The position numbers and the translations under genes were made by a program. Below, piece after piece: positions 21,019-41,759 of a stretch of 64,000 nt of DNA (within the stretch, counting starts at the first letter, position 1; every line of letters begins with the position of its first letter). Origin of the DNA: a virus; IMG/VR virus record IMGVR_UViG_3300017971_000201, positions 1 through 64,000 of that record; one strand, given 5' to 3'. The notes below the pieces were generated by a model, which was not told the DNA's origin, did no database searches, and saw only the letters and a program-made list of their open reading frames with translations.

Positions 21019-21585
21019 ATGCGCAAAGAAATCTACCGTAGTCCCCCGCAGCAGATGCATGGTTATGTGGCCTACATCGTTCGCTACGACGACGGATTCA
21101 AGACCACGTTGTTCGAGCACCGGCTTGTGATGGAGCAACATCTAGGGAGGGCGCTACGGTCCGACGAAGTCGTTCATCACATAGATGGCGACAAGACAAA
21201 CAACGCGGCCGAGAACCTGGAACTTACTACTCCGTCGAAGCACGCGTCGAAGCACGCACGTCCGGCGCCGATAGTCGACCTGACCTGTCTGGTATGTGAG
21301 CGCTCGTTTGTCCGGCTAGCTCGGAAGGAACAGGAAAGGATCAGGCGTAGGAAGCGCGGCCCGTACTGCGGCAAGAAGTGCGCGGGGGTAGGTAGTCGCA
21401 AGCATCGTGGCAGGAAACGGGACAGCAAAGGCCGTATTCGATGTAGCGACTGCAAGCTCTTCCTACCAGAAGCAGAGTTTTGCAGGGAGCGCGGCAGGCC
21501 GGGTGGTCTGAGTTACAGGTGCAGATCCTGTAAGGCGGCCCAATTTCAATACAGGAAGAACAAGCAAGCCTCGGTGGCGGAATAG
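21019..21585 (+). CDS. HNH homing endonuclease with Zn fingers
   Basis: EHRLVMEQHLGRAL..EVVHHIDGDKTNNAAENLEL; CxxC pairs. Confidence 0.9.
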   Translation: MRKEIYRSPPQQMHGYVAYIVRYDDGFKTTLFEHRLVMEQHLGRALRSDEVVHHIDGDKTNNAAENLELTTPSKHASKHARPAPIVDLTCLVCERSFVRLARKEQERIRRRKRGPYCGKKCAGVGSRKHRGRKRDSKGRIRCSDCKLFLPEAEFCRERGRPGGLSYRCRSCKAAQFQYRKNKQASVAE

Positions 21586-27746: not shown

Positions 27747-28352
27747 ATGCCCACAATGGAGACGATCGAGTGCGCCAGCTGCGGCCAGTCGGTTGAGAAG
27801 CCGCTCGGCGAGGTCACTCGATCGAAGAAGCTCGGCAGACCGATGTTCTGCGGTCTGTCGTGCTCGGCAACGCACAGGAACGCGACCAGAAAGGCGCGCG
27901 AGTTCGAGATGACCTGCGAGTGCGGTGAGGTGTTCACCACCACGACGCGCAACAAGGCCAAGCGTCACTGTTCGCGCTCATGTGCGAGCAGATTCTCGAT
28001 GACCAGAAGACGCCGGTCAGCGCAGCGCGCGGCCGGCAAGAAGCACAAGCAGAACCTCGACACAGCCAAGGCTATGAGGTCGCGAGAGGCTTGGAAGTAC
28101 TCGCTGCTGCGAGAAGAGTTGGGAGACCGGCCACATGAGTTCGAGTTCGAGCTTGGCGGTCGCATTTTCGACCTAGCCCTTCTCGACACCAAGATGCTGG
28201 TCGAGTTCGACGGTCCTAGTCATCGTGAAGGCCGACAACGGATGGAAGACGGAGCGAAAGACAAGCTCGCCGCCAAACTAGGATGGCGAGTCGTTCGACG
28301 GGAGGTGAAGCGGGCGACCGTGATCCACCCCTCGACGATCGAGGACTTGTAG
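27747..28352 (+). CDS. Zn-finger + DUF559/Vsr-like endonuclease
   Basis: Two CxxC..FC/HC.xxC repeats; FDLAL..LVEFDGPSH..D..KD..GWRVVR. Confidence 0.8.
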   Translation: MPTMETIECASCGQSVEKPLGEVTRSKKLGRPMFCGLSCSATHRNATRKAREFEMTCECGEVFTTTTRNKAKRHCSRSCASRFSMTRRRRSAQRAAGKKHKQNLDTAKAMRSREAWKYSLLREELGDRPHEFEFELGGRIFDLALLDTKMLVEFDGPSHREGRQRMEDGAKDKLAAKLGWRVVRREVKRATVIHPSTIEDL

Positions 28353-36597: not shown

Positions 36598-38376
36598 CTA
36601 CAGGCCGTTCCAGTCCTTGAGAAAGAGCCGCTCTTCGGCGGCGATCTTGTTGATCTCCTCGTTGAGGTTCTCCACGTCGCCGAACTCATTCCAGTCTACG
36701 CGGAGGACGCGAGTGTAGCGCGACATCACGTCGGCGAGCATCTCGTGCTTGTCATGGATGCGGCGGAGGTAGTCGAGGGGCACGCCGGCCTCCTCGGTGC
36801 GGGCGCGGCGTTTCATGCGGTCGTGGCAGGTCTTGGGGTCAGTCCGCAGGTAGACGATCACGTCAGGGTAGCGGACAAAGCGCTTCAGCGTCCCGAACGT
36901 ATCCTCGTAGATTCCCCACTCGGCCGACGTCATGTTGCCGTCCTCGAAGACGGTCCGGCCGAAGCAGCCATCGGCGAAGATCGTGCGGTCCTGCACGACA
37001 TCGACGCCGTTGTTCGTCAGCTCAGCCGCCAGGGTGTGCTGACGGAACCGAGCCTGGAGCGCGTGCATCTGGAACGTGAACCCCCAGCGCTTGGGGTCGG
37101 CGTAGTAGAGGCCGAGCAGCTCCTTGAAGCGTCCCTTGAGCGGCTCGAACAGGACGTGGGTCGGGCCATCGTAGCCGGTACGGAGTCGCGCGAGCATGTT
37201 GGCACACTCGGTGTTGTGCGTCACCTGGAAGTTCCCGAGCAGGAACCGGCCGTCCCCGTCGAGTGTGAAGCCGGCGTAATCGCCTCGACCCAACGGCTCG
37301 ACCGTGAAGCCGAATCGCAGCGGATTCTTCTTCTGCTTGCGTGGTTGGGGCTTCTTACGCTCGACGCGCATAGGCAGGAACGTCATGTCGCCAGAGATGG
37401 ACATTCGGTAGTAGGAGCGGTCGTAGCCCGGTACGGTCTTGATCGAACGCACAACCCGCAGTCCCAGAGAGCGCGCGACGAAGGTGATGTCGTCGGCGAG
37501 ATGCTCACCCCGCTGGATGATCTCGAAGGAGCCCTTGCACAGGTGCCCGTCCGTGTCGAGAAGCCCGGCCAGCAGCCTTGCTCTGATCTCGCGCGAACCG
37601 TACTTGCAGCGCGCGGGAATGCTGTAGCCGTAGTCCCGCTGCTCCGGCGCCATCAGATGCCGCAGCTTCTCCAGCAGCGGGTTGCCTTTCCCGTCGCGCA
37701 CGAGCCCGAACGTCGGGCAGCGGTCGGGATAGTCGTAGCGGCTCAGGCGGCACCCCTCGGTTGGAGCGAAGTCGCGCAGGTAGTCAATCAGCTCCTCGTC
37801 CGGGAACGTCAGCTGGACACCCTGGCTGAGATCCTTGCGACCATCCCCCAGCCAGAGGCCGATGAAGTAGGGGTCGATCTCCGGCTCGATCACCGGCGGG
37901 AAATCGACCGGAACGGTGAACAGCTTTTGTCTCTCACGCCACGTCTTGTCACGTGTCAGGAACTCGTTGAGTGGAATGTCGATGACCTCGTCCGTCAGCG
38001 TATCCACGACGGTCAGCACGTGTACGTCGTTGCAGATCCACGACGGCGCGCGTTTCGGCTTGATCTCGAACATGGGGCCGGTGCCGCGAGTCGTCGAGCG
38101 CACCTCGCGCGGCTGGCTGTCCGGCCCCATGAGCCGCTGGCCAACCTCGAGTCCACCGGCCTTGACGGTGTGACCATCGTAGAGCAGCACCGGCGTTTCC
38201 GGGTCCAGGCACTTCCCTGTACCGATGTTGGCCTCGATCCCAACGAAGAGACCGCGCCGCTCGCGAAGGTGGGGAAGGGCCTGCATGATCGCGTTCGTGT
38301 CGATCTCCTGAATCGCCTGCATCTGGGCCTGCACGTCGGCCTCCTCGTGTTCGTCGTCTTTGGGTTGGTTGGACAT
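36598..38376 (-). CDS. Deoxynucleoside kinase with intein
   Basis: IEANIGTGK|intein|T; YYADPKRWGFTFQ, QDRTIFAD, PDVIVYL, RARTEE. Confidence 0.9.
   Translation of the reverse strand: MSNQPKDDEHEEADVQAQMQAIQEIDTNAIMQALPHLRERRGLFVGIEANIGTGKCLDPETPVLLYDGHTVKAGGLEVGQRLMGPDSQPREVRSTTRGTGPMFEIKPKRAPSWICNDVHVLTVVDTLTDEVIDIPLNEFLTRDKTWRERQKLFTVPVDFPPVIEPEIDPYFIGLWLGDGRKDLSQGVQLTFPDEELIDYLRDFAPTEGCRLSRYDYPDRCPTFGLVRDGKGNPLLEKLRHLMAPEQRDYGYSIPARCKYGSREIRARLLAGLLDTDGHLCKGSFEIIQRGEHLADDITFVARSLGLRVVRSIKTVPGYDRSYYRMSISGDMTFLPMRVERKKPQPRKQKKNPLRFGFTVEPLGRGDYAGFTLDGDGRFLLGNFQVTHNTECANMLARLRTGYDGPTHVLFEPLKGRFKELLGLYYADPKRWGFTFQMHALQARFRQHTLAAELTNNGVDVVQDRTIFADGCFGRTVFEDGNMTSAEWGIYEDTFGTLKRFVRYPDVIVYLRTDPKTCHDRMKRRARTEEAGVPLDYLRRIHDKHEMLADVMSRYTRVLRVDWNEFGDVENLNEEINKIAAEERLFLKDWNGL
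37213..38211 (-). mobile_element. Intein with LAGLIDADG endonuclease
   Basis: CLDPETP ... IGLWLGDG, LAGLLDTDG ... VTHN followed by T. Confidence 0.92.
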
Positions 38377-38418
38377 GCTGTTTCCGTCCGATCCGCCGGT
38401 CATATACCATCCGCGTCT

Positions 38419-41004
38419 TTAGGCGTTGTCACCCCCGAGTAGCTCCGCAGCTGTGAAGCGCCGCAGGCACTTCATGCAGGTGGTCTTCTTGCCGCTCTCC
38501 TTCATCCGATCGACCACCTTGCGCGAGATGAGCTTGATCTCGCCCTTCTCCTTGCAGCCTGGACAGAAGTAGGCGCCCGAGGTCAGCGCTGACGGCTCTC
38601 GCGCGTCCAGGCGGGCGAGCCTCGCGCGCGCGATCTGGGCGTAGTCCTCATCCTTGTCGCAGGTCACGAACTGGAAGCCGAGCCTCTTCGCGGCCACTGG
38701 CGTCGAGCCCGTCCCGCAGAACGGATCAAGCACGACTCCGCCCTCCTGCGTGACGAGCCGGATGAGGTACTCCATTAACGCAAGCGGCTTCTGGGTCGGG
38801 TGGCTGATCACCTCGTCCTTGTGCTCGTCGTGCTCCTCGAAGCTGTCACCCTCATGGTTGAAGACCAGCTGACAGCGGCGGCAGTAGGACCAACGCTCCT
38901 TCGTCGCTGCCTTGGGCGTATAGAAGAAGCGGCAGCTAGCAGCGAGCTTTTCTTCTACGGTAAGCCCGCATGTAGGCGTTGTGTTCGGATGACGCGGATG
39001 GATCGTCAGAAAGAAGCGGCTTGCGCCTCCTGCGTCATCGAATCCGGTTCTTGGCTGTAAGGATCCCACGCGACCTTTACCGCTATCCGCGATAGCCGGA
39101 CTGGCCGAACGCCGGATGGCAATAGGATTGGTGGGTACGGTGCTCTGGCTGCGCCCACTCTGCCGATCAAGCTCGGCGACCGGACAGCCAGGCGCGCACT
39201 CGTACTCCTGGACCTCTTCCTTGCCATCGTCGTCGGCGTAGGTCTGATCTTCGCCGCGCTGAGTGCGAGCCTTCAGGTTGATCCGCTGGTCTGCACCATC
39301 CTCCGGCAGGTTGCGCTTCACCGCCGTTCCGGTGCGTACCCGCTTCGATCCGACCAGCTGGCACTCGTCAGTAGCACAATGAACGAACCATTTGCGCCAT
39401 CCAGCCGGAATCAGTTCACGGATAACTTCAAGGCGCGCACTTGGGCGCGTAGCCGTTTGTTCTCCGCCCGAATTCTTACAAGTTCTCGTTCCACCTTCCG
39501 GTGGTCCTTGCTGTGGTCTCTCCGATCCGTGACTTCCAGGTTCCTCGGCCGGTTGTCGTCCTTGATCCCGTTCCGGTGGTGAACGATCTCCGTACGCGCC
39601 AGCGGTCTGCCCAGCGTCATCGCGGCAACCGCCCTGTGCTCCAACACGTACTTGCCCTTCACCATCTTCCGAGCGAACGGTCGCAGCGGTTCTGGGAGCA
39701 CTTCGATCATCACGTGCAGGTAGCCGTTGCGGTCCTTGTATCTGCCGCCCTTCCACTGCGACGAATTCTCCCGCAGGAACTTGCCCGTCGCCGCGTCCGC
39801 CATCTTCTTGCGAGACGCTTTCGTGTGGCGTTTCCCTAGTCGGCTGAGGTTGGCCTTCGCATGGCACGCCCGCGAGCAGTACTTCCTTCGCCCGTTCCTC
39901 GCCCATGCCGGTGTGACCTCGAAACTCCGCCGGCAGTGCTTGCAGGTGATCTTCACCCACTGCACCTTGCGCTTCTTGCGGCGCGCTTGTCCAGCGCACG
40001 CCTGAGTACAGAAGCGTCGTTTCGCGAGCCGCGCCGGCATCCCGCGCATCAGCTCTCCGCAGTGCTCGCACGGCTTCGTCAACGCGGTAGTAGGCATAGA
40101 TCGTGGCACGCTGCTCCTCCGTCGCATCGGGTACGAGCGTGTACCAATCATACTCGATATGTGAGAGGATCACGTTCGATGGCCACCGTCCGTCCTTCGA
40201 CTCGCACGCGATGTTCTTGAAGCCGCCTTTGTGGCAGGGAGAGCCTCCCTTGCCCTTCGGGTAGCTCCAGCCTGGGTTCGGGCCGACGCGTGCCGCGTCG
40301 ATGTTCAGCGCGCCTGTTCCGTGTTCCAGAACGTGGTCGGCGTACCGGCCGTTGAACGGCTTGCGGGCCAGCACGATCGGCTCGTGCGCCGGCTTGAGAG
40401 CTGTTCCCCAGCCCTTCCATGCCGCACCTTCCTCGGTCGCCGGCTCATCCCGGATCGTCCGGCCGCCGCGCCTGTCCTTGCTCGAGATCCCCCTGTTGGT
40501 CGTGTGCTCACGCCGCCGGCCCTCGCCAGTGCGGACCTCGTCGTTCGCGAACTTGATCGCGTGCGAGTCCGAGCGGCCGGTCGTCAGCAGCGCGTCGATG
40601 CCCTTCGAGATGTTGTGCGACTTCGGGAAGCCGGTGCCTGTGAGCCAGTCGATCTGGTCGTAGACCTCGAAGCCGGCGAACCGGATCGCCATCACGCCCC
40701 AGTCGAATGTGCGCGTCCCGAAGAATGACATCAGCCAGGCGCCGGGCTTCAGGACACGGTAGACCTCGCGCCAGAGCGTCGGGCCGGGGACGAACCTGTC
40801 CCACTCGTTCTCCATGAAGCCGCCGCCGGCCGGCGCGAAATCCTCACCGGCGAGCCAGGCGCGCATGACCTCAGCTGGATCAGGCTGGTGGACGCCCAGG
40901 CCGTACGGGCTGTCGGTCACACAGGAGTCGATGCACTCGTCGGGGAGCTGCCGCAGGTACTCCGCAGCATCGCCAACCCCGACTGCATTCAGGTAAGACA
41001 CCAA
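38419..41004 (-). CDS. DNA N6-adenine/N4-cytosine methyltransferase (beta class) with large insertion
   Basis: VTDSPYG, GFPKS, GWGTALKPAHEPI, HPTQKP, LDPFCGTGST. Confidence 0.88.
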   Translation of the reverse strand: MVSYLNAVGVGDAAEYLRQLPDECIDSCVTDSPYGLGVHQPDPAEVMRAWLAGEDFAPAGGGFMENEWDRFVPGPTLWREVYRVLKPGAWLMSFFGTRTFDWGVMAIRFAGFEVYDQIDWLTGTGFPKSHNISKGIDALLTTGRSDSHAIKFANDEVRTGEGRRREHTTNRGISSKDRRGGRTIRDEPATEEGAAWKGWGTALKPAHEPIVLARKPFNGRYADHVLEHGTGALNIDAARVGPNPGWSYPKGKGGSPCHKGGFKNIACESKDGRWPSNVILSHIEYDWYTLVPDATEEQRATIYAYYRVDEAVRALRRADARDAGAARETTLLYSGVRWTSAPQEAQGAVGEDHLQALPAEFRGHTGMGEERAKEVLLAGVPCEGQPQPTRETPHESVSQEDGGRGDGQVPAGEFVAVEGRQIQGPQRLPARDDRSAPRTAATVRSEDGEGQVRVGAQGGCRDDAGQTAGAYGDRSPPERDQGRQPAEEPGSHGSERPQQGPPEGGTRTCKNSGGEQTATRPSARLEVIRELIPAGWRKWFVHCATDECQLVGSKRVRTGTAVKRNLPEDGADQRINLKARTQRGEDQTYADDDGKEEVQEYECAPGCPVAELDRQSGRSQSTVPTNPIAIRRSASPAIADSGKGRVGSLQPRTGFDDAGGASRFFLTIHPRHPNTTPTCGLTVEEKLAASCRFFYTPKAATKERWSYCRRCQLVFNHEGDSFEEHDEHKDEVISHPTQKPLALMEYLIRLVTQEGGVVLDPFCGTGSTPVAAKRLGFQFVTCDKDEDYAQIARARLARLDAREPSALTSGAYFCPGCKEKGEIKLISRKVVDRMKESGKKTTCMKCLRRFTAAELLGGDNA
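39411..40097 (-). CDS. HNH endonuclease nested out of frame within the methyltransferase
   Basis: Zn fingers, WKGG, YVLEHRAV..LGRPL..EIVHHRNGIKDDNRPRNLE. Confidence 0.88.
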   Translation of the reverse strand: MPTTALTKPCEHCGELMRGMPARLAKRRFCTQACAGQARRKKRKVQWVKITCKHCRRSFEVTPAWARNGRRKYCSRACHAKANLSRLGKRHTKASRKKMADAATGKFLRENSSQWKGGRYKDRNGYLHVMIEVLPEPLRPFARKMVKGKYVLEHRAVAAMTLGRPLARTEIVHHRNGIKDDNRPRNLEVTDRRDHSKDHRKVERELVRIRAENKRLRAQVRALKLSVN

Positions 41005-41021
41005 TGCCCCCGGCCCGTCGC

Positions 41022-41759
41022 TTACTCGCCGTCATCCCCCGGGCCAGAGTCTACCTCGTCCTTCAGACGTTGGGCGATTTCTTCGAGCTTCTCGCGCATC
41101 GAAGCGCAAGCCGCGTCAAACTCGTCGATTACACCATCGACGATCTCAGCCGCCTCGCCGATGACCGGAGCGCGCATCTCGCGGCGCAGCTCGGCCGCTC
41201 GCTGTCGGATCTCCTGGAGGACGCGCTCCTGAGCGCCGGACCGCAGCCGGTTGTAGGCTTCCTCGACCTTGTTGAGCTTCGTCTCGAGTTTCGCCATGCG
41301 CTTGATGGCGGCATCGGCCTTCTCGCGCTCGCCCTCGGCTAACGCCTTCCAGGCGTTGTCAACCGTCTCGAGAGCCTCCTGGGCGCGCGGAGGGTTCTTC
41401 GCCACCAGGGCCTCGCCCGACATCTGTACGGCGTCCACGAACCAGTCGGCCCTGACCCGGGCCGCGTCCTGGACGGCCGATGACCATCCATCACGCGCCT
41501 TGAGCACTGGAACGCCCCACACACGGCCCATCTCGTGCGCCTGCTTCGAGAAGTTGTGGGAGACGGCTATCGTACAGACGACGATCGCGTCGGCCGGCTG
41601 TGTGTCGAGCCGGCCCTTGCCTCCCTGTGTCTGCTGGTCGATCAGCTCGATGTCGAACGCGTTGCGTGCCCAGACGGGGATGTTCTTCTCCTTACCACCG
41701 ATCACGAGCACGCGGCGGCGTAACGGACCAGACGGCTGATCGCCGTTCCTGTTGGACAT
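41022..41759 (-). CDS. DUF2325-like domain + coiled-coil protein
   Basis: VLVIGG, ADAIVV..VSH. Confidence 0.55.
   Translation of the reverse strand: MSNRNGDQPSGPLRRRVLVIGGKEKNIPVWARNAFDIELIDQQTQGGKGRLDTQPADAIVVCTIAVSHNFSKQAHEMGRVWGVPVLKARDGWSSAVQDAARVRADWFVDAVQMSGEALVAKNPPRAQEALETVDNAWKALAEGEREKADAAIKRMAKLETKLNKVEEAYNRLRSGAQERVLQEIRQRAAELRREMRAPVIGEAAEIVDGVIDEFDAACASMREKLEEIAQRLKDEVDSGPGDDGE

Follow-up and report, generated by a model that had tools for sequence, protein, structure and literature searches.

A DNA methylase gene enclosing a second gene in another frame

The window analyzed here is a 64,000-nucleotide stretch of DNA from a marine phage (positions 1 to 64,000 of IMG/VR record IMGVR_UViG_3300017971_000201), and the phage collection that we searched contains no DNA nearly identical to the locus described below, the features of which are collected in Table 1. 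At this locus lies a DNA methylase gene, adjoined on its downstream side by a dNK gene. The methylase matches PF01555 in two stretches that flank a long insert (Pfam search of the ORF, E 2.1e-27), with motif IV in the N-terminal half (DSPYG at aa 31) and AdoMet motif I in the C-terminal half (FCGTGS at aa 762), the arrangement that defines beta-class N6/N4 DNA methyltransferases. Motif IV has the variant form DSPY instead of DPPY, and reads DAPY in relatives that lack the insert. The catalytic and AdoMet motifs flanking the insert are all intact, the C-terminus forms a Zn-ribbon tail, and CcrM (6PBD) is among the sequence relatives with a solved structure.

Table 1. Features of the methylase locus, in window coordinates.
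Feature	Position	Strand	Description
PF01555 beta-class N6/N4 DNA methyltransferase	38419-41004	minus	861 aa, one uninterrupted ORF
Insertion element	39367-40158	minus	792 nt; host-frame aa 283-546; junction from DNA alignment
5' edge of insert, host-frame peptide	40087-40158	minus	IEYDWYTLVPDATEEQRATIYAYY; conserved pattern xVLxLxDxxPxxxxxxIxEY[FY]
Centre of insert, host frame	39433-40086	minus	about 218 codons, rich in G, R, E, P, Q and S
3' edge of insert, host-frame peptide	39385-39432	minus	LEVIRELIPAGWRKWF; conserved pattern LEVLAxD[IV]PxxWxxYF
HNH homing-type endonuclease ORF	39411-40109	minus	frame +1 relative to host; 232 aa from GTG at 40109
Shine-Dalgarno-like GGAGGAG	40114-40120	minus	4 nt upstream of proposed HNH start; T-E-E in host frame
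In-frame scar	38923-39009	minus	29 aa, LTIHPRHPNTTPTCGLTVEEKLAASCRFF; host motif ASRFF repeated on both sides

The initial annotation reported a complete zinc-finger HNH ORF running through the insert on the same strand and in another frame, and a match to HNH_3 in frame +1 (Pfam, E 1.3e-8) bears this out. The predicted protein has two CxxC...CxxxC zinc fingers, a weak NUMOD3 match, the catalytic motif EHR / VHHxNGxKxDNxxxNL / HxxxH, and a C-terminal helix. Across an alignment of seven such hidden HNH proteins, the zinc-finger cysteines and the EHR / HH-N-DN-NL-H motif are invariant, as is VHHRNGIKDDNRPRNL...H...H, and the tail is poorly conserved. An AF2 model of the protein (pLDDT 82.6) finds I-HmuI (1U3E) as its best PDB match, at a modest level (VIA-align: Z 5.0, rmsd 4.3, 75 residues); I-HmuI is also the top Foldseek match, a weak one (E 0.23), and a sequence search against the PDB returned nothing at E<=0.01. 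On the basis of its motifs and its model, we assign the ORF to the HNH_3 / I-HmuI-like endonucleases, and it is predicted to encode a nuclease.

The proposed GTG start is preceded by a Shine-Dalgarno-like sequence, and both occur at the homologous position in the window element and in two related elements (L006 and L021); a clear Shine-Dalgarno sequence is absent before the HNH start in 4 of the 7 elements examined on DNA. The alternative start, an ATG at 40151 that would give a protein of 246 aa (ORF 39411-40151), has no Shine-Dalgarno sequence. Within the methylase gene we found no sigma-70-type promoter, and the sole terminator-like site is on the opposite strand.

Boundaries of the insert and alleles that lack it

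Insert-free homologues allow the boundaries of the insert to be resolved by alignment, as the initial annotation had proposed. Two of them, P0002 (76% identical) and P0003 (74% identical), place the insertion between H282 of NVILSH and ECQLVG, and DNA alignment shows that 792 nt stand in place of the 6 nt CTG CCC, or two codons, of the insert-free allele. The insertion that had been annotated after NVILSH at 39376-40158 is thereby confirmed at 39367-40158, a difference that falls within the ambiguity of the junction. P0002 (locus L015) is a syntenic relative, and an insert-free allele is also present on a contig from environmental run X3, in which GTGGCCCATCTGCC joins the two sides. At the same time, many methylases that are only distant relatives have homologous inserts at this site.

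The host frame is kept open across the insert

The absence of stops from the methylase frame across the insert, recorded in the initial annotation, could have been a chance result of high GC. Over 252 codons of the insert, however, the host frame contains 0 stops and the third sense frame contains 12, and when synonymous codons are shuffled such that the HNH protein is preserved, only 0.1% of the shuffles leave the host frame open (P 0.001 for the window). For related elements, the corresponding values are <1/3000 in L004, which has 35% GC, and 0.0027, 0.06, and 0.10 in the others; applied to the elements in frame +2 that occupy the two other sites, the test is uninformative (P 0.2-0.9). Four homologous inserts at the site of the window element, spanning GC 35-71%, contain 0 host-frame stops, compared with 8-31 third-frame stops, and the host frame is stop-free in 9 of 9 same-site genes examined on DNA, including genes at 35% and 43% GC. 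Free-standing HNH homologues, for their part, have 10-32 stops in the frame that corresponds to the host frame. Together, the third-frame stops, the rarity of open shuffles, the open same-site homologues, and the stops in free-standing HNH genes indicate that selection, rather than high GC, keeps the host frame free of stops.

Conserved edges and a disordered centre

The host-frame translation of the insert consists of two short edges (only about 25 and 17 residues) around a long centre. The edges had been described as protein-like from this sequence, with the suggestion that they be sought in other genes; in about 50-70 methylases we find both of them, read in the host frame, conserved as peptides, with their amino acids maintained despite widely differing nucleotide compositions. 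Across 68 profile matches, the P and F of the 3' edge are invariant and the W is nearly so. The edges are better conserved in the host frame than in the HNH frame. IPAGWRKWF of the 3' edge falls past the HNH stop, and in two elements (L004 and L007) the HNH frame contains stops within the 5' edge. Toward its 3' end, the 5' edge also contains the start codon and ribosome-binding site from which the HNH protein would be translated. Sequence identity in the centre is higher when read in the HNH frame (58%) than in the host frame (36%), and this part of the insert is constrained mainly by the HNH frame, with stop avoidance the only constraint in the host frame.

Structure prediction of the full methylase follows the same division. 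In the AF2 model, the 5' edge forms a strand (residues 286-289) and a helix (295-316) at pLDDT of about 70-82, and the 3' edge likewise a strand (524-527) and a helix (533-538) at pLDDT 78-86. The centre, described initially as low in complexity, falls below pLDDT 50 over most of its length, with residues 341-519 below 35, and disorder is predicted for the larger part of it. The earlier suggestion of a looped-out insert with folded flanks agrees with the model, and the two edges may touch each other. A complex prediction from alignments of the two edge peptides (score 0.12, mark 0.32) speaks neither for nor against binding.

Conserved terminal blocks around a degenerating nuclease, together with the mini forms described below, parallel the life cycle of inteins, and a disordered loop of 200 residues would be protease-sensitive. 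One might thus suppose that the insert is translated and then removed or cut as protein, either by edge chemistry of a non-Hint kind or by proteolysis of the loop, the latter giving a two-chain methylase whose chains are joined through the edges. We consider this unlikely: Pfam detects no Hint or intein domain in the methylase ORF, the junctions of 47 elements vary in their residues and have neither a conserved Cys, Ser, or Thr nor a terminal His-Asn, and the edges are far too short for a splicing domain. An intein proper is rejected on the same grounds, as the insert begins with Ile and ends ...KWFVHCATD|E; the absence of intein termini had been noted from the outset. True inteins do occur elsewhere in this methylase family and in the neighbouring dNK gene.

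A widespread family with decayed members and a second site

At E<=1e-3, a host-frame profile of the insert matches 72 protein clusters (50% identity); of 68 new matches that were scanned, 60 are PF01555 methylases. Members of the family come from metagenomic phages, marine and otherwise, and span 35% to 71% GC, and we conclude that the element at the NVILSH site represents a separate, widespread family of hidden HNH insertion at a new site. In two mini elements (P0187/L020 and P0177) the nuclease is gone, whereas both edges and an open host frame remain; decayed elements shorten by in-frame deletions, not by frameshifts. The in-frame scar listed in Table 1 is the remnant of a second hidden HNH element at another site of the same methylase gene, the full version of which is present in P0004. 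Yet another gene, in L021, contains both an element of the ShiLan type (see below) and one of the NVILSH-site type.

Phage orphan methylases are often dispensable (discussed in PMC11855218), and the invaded methylase could itself be non-functional, with the frame held open for some other purpose, for instance to prevent transcriptional polarity from affecting the dNK gene downstream, or to supply ribosome traffic that aids HNH expression. We regard this as quite improbable. The dN/dS of the methylase, taken over the entire divergence from the insert-free relative and so including time before the insertion, is 0.18 downstream of the insert versus 0.26 upstream, which suggests that the downstream half is under purifying selection. 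Intact catalytic and AdoMet motifs, this low dN/dS, edges conserved as protein, and decay by in-frame deletion together point to selection on the full-length methylase product.

Phage group I introns commonly carry HNH genes as cargo (PMC11855218), and the insert might leave the mRNA as an unrecognised self-splicing or host-assisted intron, the open host frame being incidental. Some 50 nt at the 5' end of the insert and 45 nt at its 3' end fall outside the annotated HNH ORF (GTG 40109 to stop 39411) and would be available to such an intron, and more if the poorly conserved HNH tail were non-coding. The group I intron core that would have overturned the initial reading was not found: an Rfam search of 38400-41100 at E<=10 gave only three chance-level matches, none related to introns, with the caveat that divergent cores can escape covariance models. 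RNA folding of the edges is no better than that of shuffled sequences (z -1.3 and -0.3), and the mini elements, in retaining the host frame, count against an intron, which we consider very improbable. RNA splicing and ribosomal bypass had both been listed as alternatives, and our results brought nothing in favour of either; splicing would require neither a stop-free host frame nor edges conserved as amino acids. Ribosomal bypass and a split gene are rejected likewise, as neither would call for, or lead one to expect, a frame kept open by selection or host-frame peptides that are conserved. The MobE-type split ("genes in pieces") is further incompatible with the single continuous ORF of 861 codons.

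A probable homing element tolerated by reading through

We conclude that the insert is probably a homing element with a hidden, out-of-frame HNH gene, which the phage methylase tolerates as a loop that is read through. The central proposal of the initial annotation, a mobile endonuclease tolerated because the host frame stays open, is upheld by the syntenic insert-free relative, the distant inserts at the same site, the purging of stops, and the conservation of the HNH residues. We infer that the insert-bearing gene is translated by read-through and that its product is active as a methylase.

Under this model, the methylase would be translated straight through to a protein of about 95 kDa, in which the edge peptides, each contributing a strand and a helix, would pack at the base of the insert while the roughly 200 codons overprinted by the HNH gene would form a disordered surface loop that leaves the methylase fold preserved. 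The HNH protein would be produced separately, by internal initiation at GTG 40109, downstream of the GGAGGAG that lies within the 5' edge. When infections are mixed, insert-free alleles would be cut by the endonuclease near ...CAT CTG CCC GAG TGC..., and the element would be copied in as the break is repaired by recombination. After fixation, the nuclease would decay through in-frame deletions, leaving mini elements or scars.

A further reading, which we put forward tentatively and hold to be somewhat doubtful, is that the edge peptides form a portable "clasp" of protein, carried along with the endonuclease gene and able to close the base of the insert for any host loop. Such a clasp may allow about 200 overprinted, disordered residues to be tolerated and may outlive the nuclease as mini elements, and its 5' half may at the same time provide the nuclease gene with its ribosome-binding site and start codon. 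If true, it would constitute a third route to harmless homing endonucleases besides introns and inteins, one that operates at the protein level and is free of splicing.

To our knowledge, homing endonucleases in essential or conserved genes have been thought to persist only on self-splicing introns or inteins. The report on the ShiLan domain (2025) proposed a third way, in which the insert is read through in another frame (PMC11855218), on the evidence of about ten GC-rich mycobacteriophage genes, for which an open frame is weak evidence. The NVILSH-site family firms up this idea with an independent site and frame, at least 72 clusters, a host frame open at 35% GC, conserved flanking peptides, and decayed mini forms. 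It also offers a natural case of long dual coding born of invasion and not of de novo overprinting, and a warning for annotation, as long "linker" regions of phage methylases can conceal nuclease genes.

Comparison with known systems

Several endonuclease genes are known to lie in or beside conserved genes with neither an intron nor an intein, among them the free-standing MobE and Seg endonucleases of T-even phages ("intronless homing"), the split nrdA of Aeromonas phage Aeh1, and the in-frame LAGLIDADG insertions of fungal mitochondrial rps3, where the host ORF remains continuous. The window element resembles all of these in this position and in the proposed copying by repair of a cut allele. 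MobE-type insertions, however, divide the host into two polypeptides, whereas the window host reads through the nuclease gene, and the rps3 insertions share the reading frame of the host to which they are fused, whereas the window nuclease is in a different one.

With inteins, the window element has in common an in-frame insertion in a conserved region of the host protein, conserved terminal blocks, a decaying nuclease, mini forms, and homing. In contrast to them, it has no Hint fold, junction nucleophiles, or His-Asn, its nuclease is in another frame than the host, and the insert presumably stays in the mature protein. The HNH protein itself is like I-HmuI in its catalytic HNH motif and in a modular architecture with added DNA-binding elements (NUMOD3-type modules), but I-HmuI resides in a group I intron, whereas the window HNH bears a pair of zinc fingers at its N-terminus and has the host frame overprinted on it.

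The closest known system is the ShiLan domain of mycobacteriophage DNA methylases, in which an HNH insertion likewise lies out of frame (Arsenault, Gosselin & Gogarten 2025, Genes 16:178, PMC11855218); a hidden HNH of this kind has also been noted for phage Applejack gp54/55 (PMC12613952). Both the ShiLan and the window elements have a PF01555 host with a stop-free host frame, a same-strand zinc-finger HNH in another frame (about 33% identical between the two), no intron or intein signatures, a disjunct distribution suggesting homing, and a host-frame product predicted to be looped out and mostly disordered. They differ in that the ShiLan insertion follows ALKPxxEP, uses the third frame, starts at a GTG 18 bp into the insert, and carries an 11-aa repeat of downstream host sequence (PMC11855218), whereas the window element follows NVILSH in a variable region, uses frame +1, has no such duplication, and has different, strongly conserved edges. 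The hosts also differ, ShiLan belonging to actinophages and the window family to phages of marine and other metagenomes, at 35% to 71% GC. With site, frame, and flank repeat all different, and the ShiLan-type site empty in the window gene, a ShiLan domain in the strict sense is rejected. The insert is nonetheless absent from close homologues, open in the host frame beyond chance, occupied by a same-strand HNH, and free of detected splicing machinery, the set of features that defines the hidden out-of-frame HNH kind first published in 2025 (PMC11855218), to which the window element belongs; that paper came to the same conclusion for the related ShiLan domain, namely that the insert is read through in another frame.

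The insert and its host gene

In the window, which is part of a 159.7-kb IMG/VR viral record, a PF01555 methylase is encoded by a single ORF (see table), and its Pfam match falls into two stretches, one on each side of an insert. In the protein alignment, NVI..H-LP-ECQL.G is unbroken in P0002 (76% identical) and P0003, the closest relatives, and the window protein reads NVILSH-[IEYDW...KWFVHCATD]-ECQLVG; at the DNA level, 792 nt (39367-40158) stand in place of CTG CCC, in agreement with the insertion after NVILSH proposed in the initial annotation. P0002 is encoded on a syntenic phage contig (L015), where the intein-bearing deoxynucleoside kinase (dNK) gene, with its intein, is also present. 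In addition, one contig of the environmental sequencing run X3 joins 40168 to 39367 through GTGGCCCATCTGCC, which encodes VAHLP, the empty-site sequence. The joint in this sediment metagenome belongs to a diverged insert-free methylase allele (85-90% alike), from a different study than the runs with the invaded allele.

A dead methylase is disfavored: neither motif IV (DSPYG at aa 31) nor the AdoMet motif (FCGTGS at aa 762) is damaged, comparison with the insert-free relative gives a dN/dS of 0.26 for the part upstream of the insert and 0.18 for the downstream part, and the decay of the elements is in-frame. The methylase ends in a conserved, Zn ribbon-like tail of about 50 aa; its closest relatives have this tail too, and the structure prediction for it has a pLDDT around 90. 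True inteins are found in the methylase relatives P0006 and P0109 at two further sites, after FFG and after GFMGK (one with LAGLIDADG_3); the methylase family thus gathers inteins besides hidden HNH elements.

Features of the methylase, its insert and related elements (window positions unless stated otherwise)
Feature	Position	Strand	Details
N6/N4 DNA methyltransferase, PF01555	38419-41004	minus	single ORF, 861 codons
HNH endonuclease ORF	39411-40151	minus	frame +1; HNH_3 E 1.3e-8, NUMOD3 weak
In-frame scar in methylase	38923-39009	minus	29 aa; repeated ASRFF / SCRFF flanks; GGASRFF site
Methylase C-terminal tail	38419-38560	minus	CPGC...CxxC
Deoxynucleoside kinase with LAGLIDADG intein	36598-38403	minus	Hom_end_hint, Hom_end, LAGLIDADG_3; GKC...VTHN|T; directly downstream of methylase
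5' edge, AlphaFold2 full protein	strand 286-289, helix 295-316 (residues)		pLDDT 70-86
3' edge, AlphaFold2 full protein	strand 524-527, helix 533-538 (residues)		pLDDT 70-86
Centre, AlphaFold2 full protein	residues 341-519		pLDDT below 35
HNH paralogue	21109-21261	plus	
HNH paralogue	27747-28109	plus	
HNH paralogue	G000:C1:84251-84505	plus	

The open host frame is not due to chance

Across the 252 codons of the HNH frame, the methylase (host) frame holds no stops, against 12 in the third sense frame, bearing out the uninterrupted frame noted initially. Under synonymous-codon shuffles that leave the HNH protein and codon set unchanged, the host frame is open in just 0.1% of cases. Four metagenomic phages (L004-L007) with GC contents from 35% to 71% have homologous same-site inserts, confirmed on DNA; in every one the HNH lies in frame +1 and the host frame is open. 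In shuffles of the 35%-GC element, 13.6 stops are expected, and 0/3000 are open. The corresponding frame of free-standing homologues (Jabbawokkie gp30, IEBH, Javan616 and an uncultured podovirus) contains 10-32 stops. The shuffles, the 35%-GC element and the free-standing homologues remove an open frame arising by chance from high GC, the refutation foreseen in the initial annotation.

Conserved edges in the host frame

In the centre of the insert, the HNH frame has the higher pairwise identity (58% vs 36% in the host frame for the closest pair, 34% vs 18% for the most distant). The ends show the reverse: both are kept as host-frame amino acids despite very different base compositions, with the pattern xVLxLxDxxPxxxxxxIxEY[FY] over the first ~25 codons and LEVLAxD[IV]PxxWxxYF over the last ~17. 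In an unselected alignment of 68 hits, where the supposedly protein-like edges prove to be conserved host-frame peptides, the 3' edge has P and F without exception and W almost without exception. In L004 and L007, stops interrupt the HNH frame within the 5' edge, and HNH terminates ahead of IPAGW in the window and L007. This host-frame conservation, together with the HNH-frame stops, marks the edges as host-frame coding sequence and argues for translation of the insert in the host frame. We infer that the two edges touch each other.

In seven hidden HNHs, the zinc-finger cysteines and the EHR / VHH-NG-K-DN-NL / H...H motif are invariant. No Shine-Dalgarno sequence precedes the ATG at 40151; GGAGGAG sits 4 nt before a GTG at 40109, which aligns exactly with an L006 ATG preceded by AAGGAG and corresponds in position to an ATG that follows CAGGAG in the metagenomic relative L021. 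Because these start signals fall inside the conserved 5' edge (host-frame reading T-E-E-Q-R in the window, I-Q-E-Y-F-H-D in L021), the 3' part of this edge is dual-use. The start codon is uncertain in general, since a clear Shine-Dalgarno sequence is absent from four other elements. The phage genome contains three further distant paralogues of this HNH, two of which lie in the window, within a tRNA/tmRNA region.

An intein is excluded, as the insert has neither a Hint domain nor a junction nucleophile, consistent with the absence of intein termini noted from the sequence. The data lend no support to an intron: the stretches outside the ORF provide too little RNA, RNA folding of the insert edges is no better than that of shuffles, and the purged frame and conserved peptides would be left unexplained. 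Nor did the methylase/insert region give any Rfam intron match at E<=10, including the group I core that the initial annotation had named as a refutation. Ribosomal bypass and a split gene were also rejected, as neither needs an open frame.

Spread and decay of hidden HNH elements

A profile of the insert in host-frame translation, searched against 1.84 billion representatives, matched 72 clusters at E<=1e-3 and 39 at E<=1e-10, with PF01555 present in 60/68 new hits. Members of this methylase family also carry out-of-frame HNH genes at two other positions: the ShiLan site, which follows ALKPxxEP (Pollywog, MISSy, cyanophage Cr-LKS3, P0011, P0014, P0105 and P0112), and the GGASRFF site (P0004 and P0112). 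Three metagenomic relatives (L013, L021 and L022) carry two such elements at different sites of one methylase gene, with the ShiLan-site HNH of L021 in frame +2 and its NVxLxH-site HNH in frame +1. The 29-aa scar in the window methylase has both ends in common with the full out-of-frame HNH element of P0004 (L012), and is what remains of a second element that invaded this gene.

Same-site inserts of only ~90-105 aa in P0187 (locus L020) and P0177 retain the edges at both ends, and their host frame is open, so the element shrinks via in-frame deletions. Frame +1 of L020 still encodes just the C-terminal helix and a first zinc finger that is broken, and has lost the catalytic core. These short inserts are the degeneration stage expected of a homing element.

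Comparison with known systems

The ShiLan domain has been described in mycobacteriophage methylases, together with a second case in Pacc40, in a study that arrived at the same working model by computation alone (Arsenault, Gosselin and Gogarten, Genes 2025, PMC11855218); the same kind was noted in the genome announcement of phage Applejack (PMC12613952). Unlike the ShiLan domain, the window element lies at another site and in another frame, shows no flank duplication, and is bordered by edges that are of another kind and strongly conserved, and its family spans phages of very different GC content. By these features it is not a ShiLan domain. The hidden out-of-frame HNH kind is thus already published, and the window element is a distinct variant of that kind.
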